Assembly (NCBI GenBank): GCA_963693055.1
Contig: OY843751.1
Coordinates: 512,001-576,000, forward strand
Source of the DNA: a bacterium
GTDB lineage: Bacteria > Zhuqueibacterota > Zhuqueibacteria > Residuimicrobiales > Krinioviventaceae
DNA length: 64,000 nt
Direction: 5' to 3'
Below, in pieces: positions 1 to 9,397 of this stretch (the stretch's first letter is position 1; each line of letters starts with the position of its first letter). Under the pieces are notes generated by a model, which made no database searches, had not been told where the DNA came from, and saw only the letters and a program-made list of their open reading frames with translations. A program made the position numbers and the translations under genes.

Positions 1-474
1 CGACGACCGCAGATGGAGCGTAATTTAAATACAAATCAGTCACGCCCAGGTGAGACACGTGGTGGTGGTATGATGCAGGATGTTCCCTGGAATTTGATTA
101 CTCCACGTTTTGTAAACAATACAACCGGTCAGGAAAAAAGTTGGAGTGAAGAACCCTTTGTTGCTACGGCAGGTGCTCAGGATAAAACAGGTGTATGTTT
201 TGAATTCAAAATTCCGTCATCAAAGATATCCGAAAATGGAATTGATCTGGCTGCCAAAGAATTTTATGTAGGTTTGGAAATTTCCGGCGTTGTAATGAAA
301 TCCAAGGACAGACCCGAAGGTGGTCCTGGTGGTGGTATGGGCGGCCCCCTCAGAGGTGGTATGGGAGGCGGATCGGGTGGAGGTCCGGGGGTATCTCGAG
401 TCAGCGATATGTCCAAAGATACAAAAGAATGGTTCAAGCTGATCAATATCATTTTTCAATCAAAGGCTAATTAA
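1..474 (+). CDS. Hypothetical protein, C-terminal part, with Gly-rich (GGPGGGMGG) segment; 5'-truncated by window edge
   Basis: Frame is open from base 1 to TAA at 472-474; a hairpin follows at 494-524. Confidence 0.75.
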   Translation, partial: RRPQMERNLNTNQSRPGETRGGGMMQDVPWNLITPRFVNNTTGQEKSWSEEPFVATAGAQDKTGVCFEFKIPSSKISENGIDLAAKEFYVGLEISGVVMKSKDRPEGGPGGGMGGPLRGGMGGGSGGGPGVSRVSDMSKDTKEWFKLINIIFQSKAN

Positions 475-527
475 ATGATTGTTATTACCATTTATTTTAC
501 ATTTTTGTTGGGAAAATGTAAAATCTT

Positions 528-552
528 GGAACAATAAAGTTACTTATACGTT
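528..552 (+). promoter_or_regulatory. ECF sigma-type promoter of sRNA unit 1 (GGAAC-N16-CGTT)
   Basis: GGAAC 528-532 and CGTT 549-552; same spacing recurs in units 2 and 3. Confidence 0.7.
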
Positions 553-559
553 TAAGTTC

Positions 560-626
560 TTAACAACCTTTACCCAGGTTAATATTAGAAGGACAGTTGC
601 CCTACCCAGCGGCTGTCCTTTTTTTT
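560..626 (+). ncRNA. Putative sRNA unit 1: two hairpins with UACCC loops, the second an intrinsic terminator
   Basis: AACCT-TTACCC-AGGTT (565-580); AAGGACAGTTGC-CCTACCCA-GCGGCTGTCCTT (589-620) plus T-tract; paralogous to unit 2. Confidence 0.65.
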
Positions 627-734
627 AGTTAATGTTGGCTATTGTACAATTTTTTGATTCTATTTTTAGAAAAAAAGTTTTTATAAATTTTTTTTAATTT
701 AGTGGTTATTTTTTTAAATTTTGCGTATTTTTTC

Positions 735-759
735 TGAACTTTTTTGCATGTAATACGTT
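735..759 (+). promoter_or_regulatory. ECF sigma-type promoter of sRNA unit 2 (TGAAC-N16-CGTT)
   Basis: TGAAC 735-739 and CGTT 756-759; -10 context ATACGTT identical to unit 1. Confidence 0.7.
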
Positions 760-766
760 ATAAATA

Positions 767-838
767 AAACAACCCCTTTACCCGGGTTGATAGCAGAAGG
801 ACAGTCGCTCCTACCCAGTGGCTGTCCTTTATTTTTTT
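767..838 (+). ncRNA. Putative sRNA unit 2, paralog of unit 1
   Basis: CAACCC-CTTTACCC-GGGTTG (770-789); AAGGACAGTCGCT-CCTACCC-AGTGGCTGTCCTT (797-829) plus T-rich tail. Confidence 0.65.
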
Positions 839-853
839 AATTGTGAATTTAAT

Positions 854-878
854 TGAACTTTTTTTTATATGCATGGTT
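854..878 (+). promoter_or_regulatory. ECF sigma-type promoter of sRNA unit 3 (TGAAC-N16-GGTT)
   Basis: TGAAC 854-858 and GGTT 875-878. Confidence 0.55.
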
Positions 879-884
879 GAAATA

Positions 885-952
885 ATATACCCTCCATTAT
901 CCCTTTATAGTCAAGAGGGCGGTTGTTTTGGATAAACAACTGCCCTTTTTTT
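885..952 (+). ncRNA. Putative sRNA unit 3: C-rich 5' seed (TACCCTCCA) plus terminator
   Basis: TACCCTCCATTATCCC at 888-903; hairpin AGGGCGGTTGTTT-TGGAT-AAACAACTGCCCT (916-946) plus T-tract. Confidence 0.55.
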
Positions 953-1025
953 ATGGGATTAATTGAATAGAGTCACCTGTTTTATCATTTATTGTTTGGA
1001 AATAAATGATAAACTGGAGGGTAAT

Positions 1026-1568
1026 ATGAAAAGAATAATCATTGGTGTTGTATTGGCTTCGATTGCTTCCTTTGCATGGGGCGCGTTTTACTGGATGGGT
1101 CCGTTGAGTGCTAATGCGTTCAATATTCAACCAGATGATAACAAGCTCCGAACTGCTTTAAAAGATGCTTTGCCGGAAAACGGAACGTTTTTCGTCCCAA
1201 ATCCCAATATGGACCAGGCCCATCATGCAAAGCTGCATGAAGAAGGGCCCATTGCCATGATCCATTTTATTCGTGATGGTAAGCCGTCAAATATGGGTGC
1301 GTTTATGGGATTTGGGTTCTTGATAAATATGTCCCTGGCTGCGTTTCTTGCCGTATTGTTGAAACTCAGTGCTCCCCGGTTGTCTGGTTATGGTAAGCGG
1401 GTTGGTTTTGTAGCACTGATTGGTCTGGCAGCATCCGTTTTCACCCGGATTGGTGGTGGCGTTTGGTGGTATCACAATGCAGCATGGGTATCCGTTATGT
1501 TCTTTTATGATTTGACTATTTATATTATCATCGGGCTGGTTTTGGCTAAATTCGTTAGATCCGAATAA
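1026..1568 (+). CDS. Hypothetical membrane protein (about 4 TM helices)
   Basis: SD GGAGG before ATG 1026; hydrophobic segments; ORF-track start 963 is probably too long. Confidence 0.85.
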   Translation: MKRIIIGVVLASIASFAWGAFYWMGPLSANAFNIQPDDNKLRTALKDALPENGTFFVPNPNMDQAHHAKLHEEGPIAMIHFIRDGKPSNMGAFMGFGFLINMSLAAFLAVLLKLSAPRLSGYGKRVGFVALIGLAASVFTRIGGGVWWYHNAAWVSVMFFYDLTIYIIIGLVLAKFVRSE

Positions 1569-1635
1569 AAAGGACTTGATAAAATGCCCGGTATGTTCTA
1601 ATTTGTATTTTATTGAAAAGAAAGGAATTTAAATT

Positions 1636-2400
1636 ATGGGTTGGCTGGGCAAAGCCATTGGCGGATCTTTGGGGTTTATGGTAGGTGGACCTTTTGGTGC
1701 TATTTTCGGTGCAGTGTTGGGGCACCAGTTTGATAAAACACAGACCTATTCACCCTATGACGGGCAACAACAGCGCCAATCATTTACGGATCAGGAAAAA
1801 AGTCAGGCTGTCTTTTTTGTTTCCACATTTTCTCTGCTTGCCAAGCTTGCAAGAGCAGATGGCAAGGTAACGCGTGAAGAAATTAATGTTATTGATGATT
1901 ATATAAAAAACTATTTGAATTTTGACAATGACGCGCGTGACATGGCGGTCAAGATATTTAATGTTGCCAAAGATTCAAACGAAACGTTTGATGCCTTTGC
2001 ACAGCAGTTTTACGGATTGTTCCGTAATGACCGGCAAATGCTCTACAGTATGCTGGAACTGCTGGTACGTGTAGCCAAAGCAGATGGAAATATTCATTCC
2101 AGTGAAGAGCAGATGCTACAACGGGCCGCAATTATTTTCAATATTGGAACGGCAGAATATGAACGAATAAAGGGTATGCATGTTCAGGATAATAATAAAT
2201 ATTATGCAATTCTGGGTGCAACGCCAAATGACACAGACGATGAAATTAAAAAGAAATACCGGCAACTGGTGAAAGAATATCACCCCGATGCTGTTATTGC
2301 CAAGGGAATGCCTGAAGAATTTATAAAATTTGCGACCGAGAAATTCAAAGAAATTCAGGAAGCTTATGATAACGTTATGAAAGAACGCAAAGCTGCCTGA
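1636..2400 (+). CDS. djlA: Co-chaperone DjlA (TerB-like domain plus C-terminal J domain)
   Basis: MGWLGKAIGG...GHQFD N-terminal anchor; KLARADG; J-domain HPD motif (EYHPD). Confidence 0.92.
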   Translation: MGWLGKAIGGSLGFMVGGPFGAIFGAVLGHQFDKTQTYSPYDGQQQRQSFTDQEKSQAVFFVSTFSLLAKLARADGKVTREEINVIDDYIKNYLNFDNDARDMAVKIFNVAKDSNETFDAFAQQFYGLFRNDRQMLYSMLELLVRVAKADGNIHSSEEQMLQRAAIIFNIGTAEYERIKGMHVQDNNKYYAILGATPNDTDDEIKKKYRQLVKEYHPDAVIAKGMPEEFIKFATEKFKEIQEAYDNVMKERKAA

Positions 2401-2438
2401 TTGAACGTTGGACCTATTTAATACCATGGAGAGTGTCT

Positions 2439-3341
2439 ATGAAAATTTATGATAAAGATATTTCAAGACGCCAGTTTATCAAGGTAACGGCGGGTGCTGC
2501 CGGTGCTGCCAGTTTAAGCAATGTGGCGCACGCGGCAGATAAAAAGCAAAAACGATCAGCCACAGATAGAGTAACTTTGGGTAAATCCGGATTAGTGGTC
2601 AGCAGACTTGCCATGGGCACCGGTTCGCAAAACGGCAAGGTGCAACGGCAACTGGGACAGGATGGTTTTAATGCTCTGGTACAATATGCATATGATCAGG
2701 GAATAACATTCTTCGATACCGCGGAAAACTATCCCGGCATGCATGATATGCTGGGCATTGCATTAAAAGGCTTTGACCGTGATAAAATTCAGATTCAGAC
2801 CAAAATGCCGTGGTGGAAATCTCCCAATCCGCAAAAAGAACTGGACCGCTATCGTAAACAATTGAATTCCGATTATTTTGATACCCTGCTGATCCATTGT
2901 GTGACCACACCCGATTGGGACGATACCCAGAAATACATCATGGATTTTTTGATGGAAGCCAAAGAGAAACAGTTGGTAAAAGCACCAGGAGTCTCGATCC
3001 ATGGCAGACTACCGTTAAAGACCGCTACGCTGGACGATTGGGGCGATGTGCGTATGGTGCGCATTAATCATGTCGGAGCCAGTATGGATGTTGCGGCCCA
3101 GGGAGAACAACCGGATGTGAATGCAATTGTGGCAAATGTTAAAAAAATGCACGACAGCGGCAAGGGCATAATCGGTATGAAACTCATTGGTAACGGCAAG
3201 TTCAAAGATCCCCAGCTCCGCAAAGATGCCATGAAATTTGTAATGGGACTGGATTGCGTGGATGCGGTTTCAATCGGGTTCAAGAGTCCCGCAGAAATCG
3301 ATGAAGCTATTGGAAATATGAATACGTATTTGAATATCTAA
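2439..3341 (+). CDS. Aldo/keto reductase with Tat signal peptide
   Basis: SRRQFIK twin-arginine motif; LGKSGLVVSRLAMGT; FDTAENY; D-Y-K-H tetrad present. Confidence 0.9.
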   Translation: MKIYDKDISRRQFIKVTAGAAGAASLSNVAHAADKKQKRSATDRVTLGKSGLVVSRLAMGTGSQNGKVQRQLGQDGFNALVQYAYDQGITFFDTAENYPGMHDMLGIALKGFDRDKIQIQTKMPWWKSPNPQKELDRYRKQLNSDYFDTLLIHCVTTPDWDDTQKYIMDFLMEAKEKQLVKAPGVSIHGRLPLKTATLDDWGDVRMVRINHVGASMDVAAQGEQPDVNAIVANVKKMHDSGKGIIGMKLIGNGKFKDPQLRKDAMKFVMGLDCVDAVSIGFKSPAEIDEAIGNMNTYLNI

Positions 3342-4509: not shown

Positions 4510-4535
4510 TGAAACAAGCGCTGAAATATTACGTT
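4510..4535 (+). promoter_or_regulatory. ECF (SigW-like) promoter TGAAAC-N16-CGTT upstream of the PP2C phosphatase gene
   Basis: TGAAAC 4510-4515 and CGTT 4532-4535. Confidence 0.55.
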
Positions 4536-4598: not shown

Positions 4599-5687
4599 AT
4601 GAAAATAGTTGATGGATTTAAGACTCTCAAGCGGTATTTTGATATCCTGACTACGGATATAAGCCTTCGTGATATGGAGTACATGATCAAGCGGGAAGGC
4701 CCAAGTGTATTTCAATTCTACAACCAGGGAAATGCGAGTCCTGATAAAAAACGAAACCGTTTTTTTCAAACACTGAGTTTAATTAAAAATCTTTTTTTGG
4801 GATTTATTTTGAAAATGAATCCTACTAACAGATGGATTTATATACCCGCTGTCTATTTGGTTATTACAGGCTTGTTGGAAAATCATGACCTTACTGTATT
4901 AGCCGGGTTTGTTTTACTAAACCTTTTGCTTGCGTTTGAAATGGCGGGCAAGATCATGGCCAAAGATGAGCTCGAGATCGCCCGGGACATTCAGATGCAA
5001 CTCCTTCCGGAAGCTCCTCCGAATTTAAAACAATATGATATCTCTTTTTTCTCCGAAGCTGCCCGTGAAGTAGGTGGAGATTTTTTAGATTTTATCCAAA
5101 ACGGGGAAAAACTGACAACGGTCATTGGTGATATATCCGGCAAGGGGATGCGTGCTGCTATTCATATGGTACAGGTGCATACAATCATCAATAGTCTTAA
5201 ATCAACAACAGGTACACACGAGTTTTTGTCGCAATTGAACGACCGGTTAGAGGGTGTGCTGCCCAAATCGGTTTTTGTGACCACCAGCTTTTTGTGCATG
5301 AATGGCAATGATTCTGTGGATTTTTACCGCTCGGGCCATTTGCCCATGTTTAAATATGATGTAAAAACGCAAAATTGTGAATCAATTGTACCACCGGGAT
5401 TAGGAATAGGGCTTGCAAGTACAGAAATATATGAAAAATCTCTGGTATGTGAGAAATTGAATATCAATACAGGTGATGTTTTTCTGTTATTTACTGACGG
5501 ACTGGTAGAAACTATGGATAGTGAACAACATGAATATGGTGAAGACCGATTGATGCAGGTTATGTGTGAACATGCAACCCTTTCGAGTAAAGAAATTCAA
5601 GATGCCATTTTAAAAAGTGTTGCCTTGTTCCGTGGTAAGCAAGCACCCCACGATGATCTTACCCTGGTCATTATTAAATGTATCTAA
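4599..5687 (+). CDS. Membrane-bound PP2C/SpoIIE (RsbU-like) Ser/Thr phosphatase
   Basis: ELEIARDIQ; EVGGDF; IGDISGKG; LFTDGLVE; HDDLTL motifs. Confidence 0.92.
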   Translation: MKIVDGFKTLKRYFDILTTDISLRDMEYMIKREGPSVFQFYNQGNASPDKKRNRFFQTLSLIKNLFLGFILKMNPTNRWIYIPAVYLVITGLLENHDLTVLAGFVLLNLLLAFEMAGKIMAKDELEIARDIQMQLLPEAPPNLKQYDISFFSEAAREVGGDFLDFIQNGEKLTTVIGDISGKGMRAAIHMVQVHTIINSLKSTTGTHEFLSQLNDRLEGVLPKSVFVTTSFLCMNGNDSVDFYRSGHLPMFKYDVKTQNCESIVPPGLGIGLASTEIYEKSLVCEKLNINTGDVFLLFTDGLVETMDSEQHEYGEDRLMQVMCEHATLSSKEIQDAILKSVALFRGKQAPHDDLTLVIIKCI

Positions 5688-7180: not shown

Positions 7181-9397
7181 TTAATAATTTACAGAAAAAC
7201 CAACCGTGGGAATGAATGGAAGCATGTTGGCATCATCCACAACCGCGGGATTTTGATTAGTATCAAACTGTCTGAACCAGACATTTTTATTGTTATAGAC
7301 ATTGATCATCTGGATGAATATTTCACCTTGTTTGCCCCAGAAAGAGGTATCCCGAAAGAGACCAATATCAAGTCTGTGATATGCAGGCAAGCGATAAAAG
7401 TTTTTCTCACCTTCCAAAACTGTATCGTATTCACGACCGTTTTGATCAACAACCGTATAGCGGGCAGTTGCTTCGGTATACGGCTGACCGGATCCGTATT
7501 TGAAGGCAAAGTTTAAGCGCCATTTGCGGGACAAGCGGTAATCCTGAATGGCTGTGAATGTATGACGTCTGTCATAAGTCGGATAATATTCTTTGCCAAA
7601 ATTATATCCGTCAACTTGTTTTTTCGTCCATCCCAGGGAATAGCCAAACCAGCCAGTGAACCCCCAAATGTTGTTGCGTAAATAGATATCCATGCCATAC
7701 GCTTTACCTTTACCGCTTAAAAAGTTGTCTGCGGCTGACATGTTTTCAACGGATTCGTCCGCGTCTCTAAATTCACGATATTCGGCAATATTGTAATATT
7801 TTTTATAATACCCTTCAACGTTAATAGAAAAGGTCTTGTCGTTATCATAAGAGTAACCCAAAATAAAATGATCAGCTTTGCCGGGCTCAAAAGTGTCATC
7901 AACAGGGAACCACATATCTGCAAAGCTCAAGCCTTCCATTTGTACCAGGTTTAAAAACTGGTGATATCTGCCAACGCTTAAAGTAACATCTGATTTATCT
8001 GTCAGTATGCGCTTTAAAGAAACACGGGGATCGAACCGTACATAATTACCATCTGTGTATTGGTCCAACCGGAGCCCGGTTTGTAAAATTGTTAACGGAG
8101 TGATCTTGAGATTGTCTTGAAAAAAGATGCTGTTATAATATCCTCCAAAAGAGTTACTATATTCAGTGTCTACCACATAATAATCCAGATCAAAATCTAC
8201 ATATTTAGTTTCAAATCCAAAATCCATCGAGTGACCTGATGATGGAGTATAGGTGAGCATGCCTTTCAAGGCAAGGTCTGTAACTTCATTAAAGTTGCCA
8301 AATTCAACCTGATCAAATGTAATTTTACTGTCACTGTCAAATCTGCTTCCCGCAAACACAAAGTGAGAAAACAGTTTGCTGTTAAACAGGTGGGTCCATT
8401 GAGATGAGAATGTACGGTTGCCCCATTTCAATCCAATATCTGTACCACCGCTGCTCATATCAAGCACATCGTGACCAGAGTAAAAACTGAGGCTTGCCTG
8501 ATTGTTATGATCAATATCCCAGTTGATTTTGCCGTGTCCATCATAAAAATAGTAGGGAAGATCAAAGTCTACCATTTTCTCAGCAAGTTCCAGATACGTT
8601 CTACGTCCCGAAATCATCCAAGAGCCGTGTTTCCAGGGGCCTTCAAGGGTTGTGCTTGCACTCAGTAAGCTCAGGCTGGTTTTACCTTCAAATTCCTGCC
8701 GGTTACCTTCTTTATTAACAACATTCAGCACAGAAGACAGTCTGCCTCCATATTGTGCGGGGTATCCGCCTTTTAACAGTTCAACCGATTTAATAGCGTC
8801 TGTATTAAATGTGCTGAAAAAACCAAACATGTGATTGGGATTATAAACATCGATGTGGTCTAACAAGATCAGGTTTTGGTCCGCGCTGCCGCCCCGAATA
8901 TACAATCCTGCAGAAAAGTCAGACAGTGTTGCAACACCGGGAAGCATCTGCAAAGAACGGAACAGATCCGCTTCTGCAACTGAAGGAATGGATTTTAACT
9001 GTGGGACCTTCATTGCTATTTGTCCCGGCTTGATATCCATTTCCCGTTGTTCACGGTCAGCTTCAACAACCACGTCTTGCATTGTAATTGTTTCGGATTC
9101 AAGATCAATGTCAAGAGAAATATCATCATTATTTTGCAAAGATTGTGTTACTATTTGTGTTTTGAAACCAATATAGCGAAAGCAAATTTCATATGTGCCG
9201 GCAGGGATTGACGTTAATACAAAATATCCCTTCATATTTGTAGTTGTGCCGATGGTGGTATCCTTTATCCAAACGTTACCCATAATAATTGGTTCTTTAT
9301 TGCCTTTTTCTCTTACAAAACCATGTATTGTGGCCGCGTTAACCGGTAACACCCCCGCGACGATACATAACAGGATTAACACTTTTTTCCAACTCAT
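7181..9397 (-). CDS. TonB-dependent receptor with CarboxypepD_reg-like N-domain and plug
   Basis: LQMLPGV; YIRGGSADQNLILLD; KGGYPAQYGGRLSSV; RLPAYHRLD; C-terminal aromatic residue; SD before ATG 9397. Confidence 0.93.
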   Translation of the reverse strand: MSWKKVLILLCIVAGVLPVNAATIHGFVREKGNKEPIIMGNVWIKDTTIGTTTNMKGYFVLTSIPAGTYEICFRYIGFKTQIVTQSLQNNDDISLDIDLESETITMQDVVVEADREQREMDIKPGQIAMKVPQLKSIPSVAEADLFRSLQMLPGVATLSDFSAGLYIRGGSADQNLILLDHIDVYNPNHMFGFFSTFNTDAIKSVELLKGGYPAQYGGRLSSVLNVVNKEGNRQEFEGKTSLSLLSASTTLEGPWKHGSWMISGRRTYLELAEKMVDFDLPYYFYDGHGKINWDIDHNNQASLSFYSGHDVLDMSSGGTDIGLKWGNRTFSSQWTHLFNSKLFSHFVFAGSRFDSDSKITFDQVEFGNFNEVTDLALKGMLTYTPSSGHSMDFGFETKYVDFDLDYYVVDTEYSNSFGGYYNSIFFQDNLKITPLTILQTGLRLDQYTDGNYVRFDPRVSLKRILTDKSDVTLSVGRYHQFLNLVQMEGLSFADMWFPVDDTFEPGKADHFILGYSYDNDKTFSINVEGYYKKYYNIAEYREFRDADESVENMSAADNFLSGKGKAYGMDIYLRNNIWGFTGWFGYSLGWTKKQVDGYNFGKEYYPTYDRRHTFTAIQDYRLSRKWRLNFAFKYGSGQPYTEATARYTVVDQNGREYDTVLEGEKNFYRLPAYHRLDIGLFRDTSFWGKQGEIFIQMINVYNNKNVWFRQFDTNQNPAVVDDANMLPFIPTVGFSVNY

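Follow-up and report, generated by a model that had tools for sequence, protein, structure and literature searches.

Promoters of the ECF type are marked by the sequence AAC...CGT. The small RNAs (sRNAs) MicA and RybB pair through a linear seed at their 5′ end. MicA has been proposed to act on a single omp mRNA (excerpt of PMC1804206). In Listeria monocytogenes, LhrC1-5 form a multicopy set of two-hairpin sRNAs, which carry a C-rich loop motif and are induced by envelope stress. According to the excerpt of PMC4132741, LhrC blocks the translation of surface protein mRNA at the Shine-Dalgarno sequence, with loop contact preceding the opening of the stem, and Hfq is not needed. Here, we compare these systems with a predicted sRNA array located at G000:C1:512.6 kb. 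G000 designates the genome from which the 64,000-nt stretch analysed as a whole (the window) was taken. Positions in the array are those of the window; all others are given on G000:C1. The gene set of G000 comprises 5,008 ORFs from a simple caller of our own, on which all gene starts rest.

An earlier note on this DNA had described the array region as free of ORFs and equipped with three promoter-like boxes of identical spacing. Both statements proved correct. No ORF of at least 60 aa lies between 475 and 962, and the boxes read GGAAC-N16-CGTT at 528, TGAAC-N16-CGTT at 735, and TGAAC-N16-GGTT at 854. TACCC occurs at 571, 603, 779, 812, and 888. The features of the array and its flanks are as follows.

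1..474, plus strand: 3′ part of the upstream gene (274 aa, function unassigned), the last gene of a cluster of ECF sigma, putative anti-sigma, and exported-protein genes
528..552, plus strand: ECF-type promoter motif of unit 1, with −35 GGAAC at 528-532 and −10 TACGTT at 547-552
559..627, plus strand: predicted sRNA 1, with hairpin 1 at 565-580 (loop UUACCC), a linker, hairpin 2/terminator at 587-622 (loop CCUACCCA), and a U tail
735..759, plus strand: ECF-type promoter motif of unit 2, with TGAAC at 735-739 and TACGTT at 754-759
765..836, plus strand: predicted sRNA 2, with hairpin 1 at 770-789 and hairpin 2/terminator at 796-830
854..878, plus strand: promoter motif of unit 3, with TGAAC at 854-858 and GGTT at 875-878
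884..952, plus strand: unit 3, with a 29-nt single-stranded, CU-rich 5′ part containing the anti-Shine-Dalgarno sequence UACCCUCC, and a terminator hairpin at 913-949
1015..1023, plus strand: TGGAGGGTA, the ribosome-binding site ahead of the downstream gene, with complementarity to the 5′ end of unit 3
1026..1568, plus strand: downstream gene for a hydrophobic protein of 180 aa, no family assigned

The 5′ end of sRNA 1 is presumably near 559. Folding of units 1 and 2 yielded two hairpins each with TACCC in all four loops, and the stem differences between the two units were recovered, both in agreement with the earlier note. The register of hairpin 1 is not the same in the two units. Unit 3 forms a single hairpin, which is the terminator. 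The fold z-scores were −6.2 for unit 1 and −5.7 for unit 2, and none of 200 shuffles folded equally well. On the minus strand, the corresponding values were only −2.6 and −1.9; the plus strand folds far better because the stems contain G-U pairs, which become mismatches on the other strand. The U runs of the units likewise belong to the plus strand. A sibling-sRNA architecture, with a promoter motif, a short body, and a terminator for each unit, was supported, as previously claimed. Throughout the 6.5 Mb, this combination was found only in the three array units, plus one chance match to a tRNA.

All three units have retained their boxes and bodies in the congener G001, where the spacers have diverged. 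One unit was found in G017, which belongs to another genus of the same family, in a syntenic position between the orthologues of both flanking genes. The orthologue of the 274-aa gene lies directly upstream of the sRNA in G017, and that of the 180-aa gene lies downstream of the sRNA in both G001 and G017. Among the five copies from the three genomes, the promoter boxes are invariant and their spacer varies; GAAC, TACGTT, CCTTTAC, and the second TACCC are the invariant elements. In the alignment of hairpin 2, all 55 cells are paired, and 3 of the 11 pairs are changed on both sides, all by G017. This check of the stems for covariation supported the earlier note, with 3 of 500 shuffles reaching the same number of double-sided changes; given five related rows, the covariation lends modest support only. 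As two of the three genomes with units are congeners, the conservation also partly reflects relatedness.

Blastn, pattern, and covariance-model searches of G000 returned two copies of units 1 and 2 at a single locus, each with a promoter motif. The dispersed, promoterless copies that the earlier note had named as the sign of a REP-like repeat did not turn up. Units 1 and 2 might nevertheless be REP-like repeats or duplicated terminators that are not transcribed on their own. REP and BIME elements are numerous and dispersed, unlike the two copies here with their conserved promoter motifs, and the boxes and loops are invariant across genera while the stems covary. We regard a repeat origin as exceedingly improbable.

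A survey of 125 genomes of the class with model R2, in which 32 candidates per genome were scored and many genomes were incomplete, found units in three: G000, G001, and G017. Matches to model R1 in four other genera were rejected as ordinary terminators without TACCC loops or promoter. Searches for promoter-plus-motif patterns in 43 genomes of the order and 167 of the phylum led to no further accepted units; as judged from the match sequences, the architecture was missing and the matches were as frequent as in the control. A metagenome scan gave 36 matches, none above 16.4 bits with R2 and none with the unit architecture. Among 14 loci of relatives of the upstream gene, a unit was present in G017 only, and it was absent from all seven loci of distant relatives of the downstream gene. 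G017 has, at G017:C108 ~9150-9200(-), a further hairpin with a TACCCC loop between its sRNA and the downstream gene. This second hairpin lacks a clear promoter or U tail and is possibly a decayed or divergent unit.

The earlier note had recognised no known family. Consistently, Rfam returned six matches with E ≤10 in positions 1-3000 of the window, none of which reached its gathering score, and the LhrC model was not among them. No description of the units 1-2 family was found in the literature searched, which was covered in part. We conclude that units 1 and 2 likely represent a narrow, undescribed family of sibling sRNAs.

The first sign of a target came from a plain blastn search of G000 with unit 2, which matched G000:C1:4818830-4818864. 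On the opposite strand, this match is the leader of a gene for a 1,117-aa TonB-dependent receptor, G000:C1:4818827(-), at 4,818.8 kb and hence 4.3 Mb from the sRNA array. The receptor carries CarboxypepD_reg, Plug, and TonB barrel domains, and its gene is followed by those for an exported protein of 685 aa and for a PorV-like barrel. Nucleotides 771-801 of unit 2 are predicted to form a 30-bp duplex with leader positions −37 to −6, a stretch that contains the Shine-Dalgarno sequence; the duplex is interrupted by one mismatch and one bulge. The earlier suggestion that the loops pair with GGGUA-containing ribosome-binding regions has therefore gained a specific predicted target.

RNAduplex ranked the receptor gene 1st for unit 2 and 19th for unit 1 among the 5,008 genes, and a compact-duplex scan of the same genes placed it first for both units. 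In cofolding net of intramolecular structure, unit 2 reached −22.8 kcal/mol with the receptor leader (rank 1 of 5,008); the next gene scored −14.8, and the background had a mean of −2.4 with an sd of 1.8. For unit 1, the receptor was only third of the 3,872 genes scanned in G000 (−15.6), and the G001 copy of unit 1 scored −20.4 with the receptor leader. The 5′ domains gave −46.2 (unit 2) and −32.4 (unit 1) against the leader. None of 40 dinucleotide shuffles of either domain reached the real score genome-wide, the best values being −31.9 and −28.7, respectively. After removal of the terminator arm, unit 2 still ranked the receptor first, but its score was matched by 1 of 40 shuffles. All four copies of the units from G000 and G001 pair with the leader, at −35.6 to −46.7.

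Three GGGTA within the last 100 nt upstream occur in only 2 of the 5,008 genes, the receptor among them. The other gene is g3019, G000:C1:3859755(+), a possible second target whose product resembles a response regulator at its N-terminus. Two of the three GGGUA sites of the receptor leader fall, as GGGUAG, into the loops of predicted hairpins and match loop 2 of the sRNAs. The last two sites are spaced like the sRNA loops, so that the reverse complement of the leader fits the sRNA covariance model; the antisense strand of the leader is the best non-self match of the model in G000 (E 0.9 and 0.4) and a weaker one in G001. On the opposite strand, the G-U pairs of the stems would be mismatched, so that the RNAs are complements of the leader and not mimics of it. 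In G001, the leader has an identical sequence in its last 65 nt and in the upstream hairpin, and the nearby upstream DNA has diverged. One tentative reading is that sRNA and leader mirror each other along the entire RNA, in the order and spacing of both loops and both arms. They would then form an Hfq-free two-loop kissing lock, and one partner might be an inverted copy of the other. We consider this reading rather unlikely.

Taken together, we think it probable that units 1 and 2 are sibling sRNAs, driven by ECF promoters, that pair in trans with the receptor leader and block its translation. Their near-perfect complementarity to the ribosome-binding region of the receptor suggests that they are likely stress-induced sRNAs switching the receptor off. 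According to the proposed mechanism, an ECF sigma factor of the GAAC-N14-TACGTT class would induce the units under envelope stress; efflux and envelope genes are among its other predicted targets. The UACCC loops would touch the GGGUA sites of the leader first, loop 1 (CUUUACCC) contacting GGGUAAAG beside the Shine-Dalgarno sequence and loop 2 (CUACCC) contacting the two upstream GGGUAG loops. Pairing would spread through hairpin 1 and the linker to ~30 bp, thereby masking the ribosome-binding site. RNase III would probably be recruited by the duplex, and the receptor operon would be repressed without Hfq. RNase III is present in G000. Hfq had no match in the complete G000 genome, which fits the long duplex.

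We infer repression rather than activation from the coverage of the Shine-Dalgarno sequence alone. Units 1 and 2 could instead activate or stabilise the same leader by binding UCCUUCU, an element that could pair with the Shine-Dalgarno sequence. It is bound in the predicted duplex, and its position upstream of AAGGAGG is kept in the receptor orthologues of G009 and G011. However, the same duplex runs on across the Shine-Dalgarno sequence to −6, and the lowest-energy fold of the leader leaves that sequence weakly paired, with a stability not above that of shuffles (z −1.1). Activation thus appears quite unlikely. The titration of an RNA-binding protein, which the earlier note had offered as an alternative to pairing, was not supported either. 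For a Csr/Rsm-like decoy speak the repetition of the motif in the loops of several copies and a CsrA homologue encoded in G000. Unlike in Csr/Rsm decoy RNAs, however, the loops carry UACCC in place of GGA motifs, and GGA is found within the stems. Moreover, the loops are related to the leader by complementarity rather than identity, and a decoy would have no need for 30 bp of complementarity to an mRNA leader. We therefore judge the decoy function very improbable and retain repression by pairing as the preferred reading for units 1 and 2.

Unit 3 differs from its neighbours. It matches model R2 at E 0.004, and both of its boxes are kept in G001. An outlier target was not found, 14 of 40 shuffles doing equally well, and the seed fits the GGAGGGTA ribosome sites of 12 genes, including the next gene downstream; unit 3 may therefore be a multi-target sRNA or a leader. 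It is likely either a third RNA, of the anti-Shine-Dalgarno type and with several weaker targets, or the leader of the next gene. In the latter case, the terminator would serve as an attenuator upstream of the 180-aa gene, and the 5′ end would fold onto the ribosome site. This agrees with the read-through fold, in which the 5′ end pairs with TGGAGGGTA at 1015-1023, both partners being kept in G001, and with the lack of a standout target elsewhere. On the other hand, the downstream gene ranks only 54th of 5,008 for the seed, the terminator is strong, and the fold shows no alternative antiterminator. In addition, the G017 gene is preceded by a different hairpin and lacks a TGGAGGGTA-type ribosome site. 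A leader function of unit 3 is thus a serious but minority possibility.

The broad fit of unit 3 also bears on a further explanation for units 1 and 2, namely that they are general anti-Shine-Dalgarno RNAs with numerous short GGGUA targets, among which the receptor leader would be a lineage-specific extra. Besides the 12 GGAGGGTA genes matched by unit 3, this would accommodate the G017 orthologue, which keeps the loops and for which no mirror leader was found, and it has a parallel in the redundant short CU motifs of LhrC (excerpt of PMC4132741). For unit 2, however, one gene stands far apart from all others. Signal peptides are not significantly enriched among the 12 genes by a rough heuristic (8/12 vs. 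239/575, p 0.14). GGGTA is not enriched in TonB receptors (1/41 vs. 262/4,967 other genes, p 0.72), and a general repression of these receptors through GGGTA was rejected on this basis. We consider a general regulator unlikely and return to the single receptor as the preferred target.

In other genomes, the predicted pairing is limited. The receptor orthologue leaders of G009, G011, G034, and G036 lack GGGTA; those of G009 and G011 keep UCCUUCU, GGUAAAGGAGG, and the Shine-Dalgarno context, which are part of the complement. No sRNA was found in G009 (73% complete) or G011. A close orthologue of the target receptor was not found in G017, and the target search in this genome by blastn, patterns, receptor leaders, and model R2 gave nothing convincing. 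From the best 30 of 40 receptor matches in G017, 29 leaders were scored, the thirtieth having no start, and all were at −6.7 kcal/mol or weaker. One of the 29 has two GGGTA after a start-less Shine-Dalgarno sequence, with a pairing of −4.8 and a chance expectation of ~10%. The succession of a start-less Shine-Dalgarno sequence and two GGGTA occurs at six places in 167 genomes, and G000, G001, and G017 are the only genomes with both sites in a receptor leader; as the gap ranges of the pattern were chosen after the sites in these three genomes had been seen, this is a lead only.

The start-less element is itself widespread. The receptor leader contains, at G000:C1 ~4818960(-), a perfect 16S-tail complement, AAGGAGGTG, that has no start codon of its own. 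It also occurs in 13 other leaders of G000 and in G001, G009, G011, G017, G034, and G036, located 59-204 nt upstream of many genes for receptors and exported proteins. It resembles the STAB-SD of cry3A (excerpt of PMC4113751); the search for RNase J in G000 did not reach its cut-off.

The ECF-type promoter class assigned in the earlier note was corroborated by an enrichment of the motif between genes at one spacing. GAAC-N14-TACGTT has nine intergenic occurrences, compared with zero to three at each of 15 other spacings, and shows no excess inside genes. The AAC version occurs 19 times, compared with 1-7 at other spacings. With 16 occurrences, compared with 7-20 when the spacing is changed, the GGTT −10 variant seen in unit 3 shows no genome-wide enrichment. 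The motif defines a predicted ECF regulon in G000, with the following GAAC-N14-TACGTT members.

G000:C1:1604232: RND efflux operon
G000:C1:4935231: HlyD adaptor
G000:C1:2392727: outer-membrane receptor
G000:C1:2320253: DUF4097 protein

A domain scan of 22 proteins chosen from behind such motifs revealed an RND efflux trio, a second HlyD adaptor, two outer-membrane barrels, a DUF4097 protein, an Omp85 protein, two glycoside hydrolases, regulators, and two ECF sigmas with their neighbours; five of the 22 had no family. An AAC-type promoter site also lies at window position 4512, ahead of a phosphatase-like gene at 4599.

The earlier note had advised looking for an ECF sigma operon left of the window, and one is indeed present 7 to 4 kb to the left. 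It consists of an ECF sigma gene, a probable anti-sigma gene, and genes for exported proteins, is contiguous in G001, and is broken up in G000 by DUF1670 gene pairs. In front of the sigma gene stands a GTCTAA-type box in place of CGTT, and we doubt that this gene encodes the cognate sigma of the units. Two other ECF genes have similar motifs: g2376 (G000:C1:3001706) has GAACTT-N14-CGTT immediately upstream, and g2884 (G000:C1:3669567), whose neighbours encode a zf-HC2 anti-sigma and an HtrA-type protease, is preceded by GGAACTT-N14-TGTT. Assuming autoregulation, one of these two is a likelier driver of the units than the neighbouring gene.

The DUF1670-type genes form two oppositely oriented pairs at G000:C1:507957-511519, Pfam having confirmed the first pair. 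They are missing at the same place in G001 and thus are probably insertion elements. The same cluster contains, at G000:C1:506715-507851, a gene whose exported product combines repeated helical units with a FlgD/secretion-tail domain; this protein has 378 aa in G000 and 496 aa, with more repeats, in G001. Neither protein flanking the array belongs to a Pfam family, and the Atlas look-alikes of the 180-aa protein are all hypothetical. In G000 and G001, the 180-aa gene is followed by a DjlA-like gene with TerB and DnaJ domains (window 1636-2400). Judging from the PorV-like and secretion-tail domains, the host is an FCB-group bacterium.

The array offers a concrete predicted sRNA-target pair, recovered from sequence alone, in a lineage without detected Hfq. 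The unusually long, mirror-like complement bears on the origin of trans-acting sRNAs and their targets. If the mirror reading were true, the birth of an sRNA-target pair would have been caught, and the pair would be the first described in this uncultured FCB-group lineage. In the logic of MicA and RybB, an envelope sigma factor turns on repair and efflux genes and turns off an outer-membrane protein via sRNAs. If our main reading is true, this logic has been reached independently with LhrC-like C-rich loops.

The sigmaE-dependent MicA and RybB of Salmonella are ECF-driven sRNAs that lower outer-membrane protein synthesis (excerpt of PMC1804206). Units 1 and 2 likewise have the mRNA of an outer-membrane protein as their predicted target, and their conserved ECF-type promoter motif may place them under an ECF sigma factor, with g2376 and g2884 as candidates. 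They differ in that they have no sequence or Rfam match to these sRNAs, Hfq was not found, the motif is displayed in loops, and the predicted target is a TonB-dependent receptor with TonB barrel and Plug domains. The closest Rfam match by E-value is CcsR1 (RF02791), with E 0.12 and 19.7 bits compared with a gathering score of 65.3. As in the CcsR/cuckoo RNAs of Alphaproteobacteria, two-hairpin RNAs stand in tandem, with a C-rich motif per loop and, by prediction here, control by an alternative sigma factor (RF02791; excerpt of PMC8034643). Here, however, the loops carry UACCC and lack the CCUCCUCCC of CcsR, and there is no adjacent DUF1127 gene. Each unit also has its own promoter motif and terminator, whereas CcsR RNAs are cut from one RpoH-driven transcript (excerpt of PMC8034643). 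The long complementarity with matching loops on both partners recalls the cis-encoded antisense RNAs RNA-OUT and FinP (excerpt of PMC4132741), from which the units are set apart by their distance of 4.3 Mb from the target, their two copies, and the wobble pairs and mismatches in the duplex. With LhrC, the units have in common the multicopy two-hairpin design, the C-rich loops, and the predicted pairing at the Shine-Dalgarno sequence of the target (excerpt of PMC4132741). The motif is UACCC instead of UCCC, and a predicted ECF promoter takes the place of the LisRK control in LhrC. The host is a Gram-negative FCB-group bacterium, the predicted duplex extends over ~30 bp, and the complement is repeated three times in the target leader. 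By these features, units 1 and 2 are not members of the LhrC, MicA/RybB, or CcsR families. The LhrC trait of redundant C-rich sites that pair with the Shine-Dalgarno region of a target is, computationally, present in both units.
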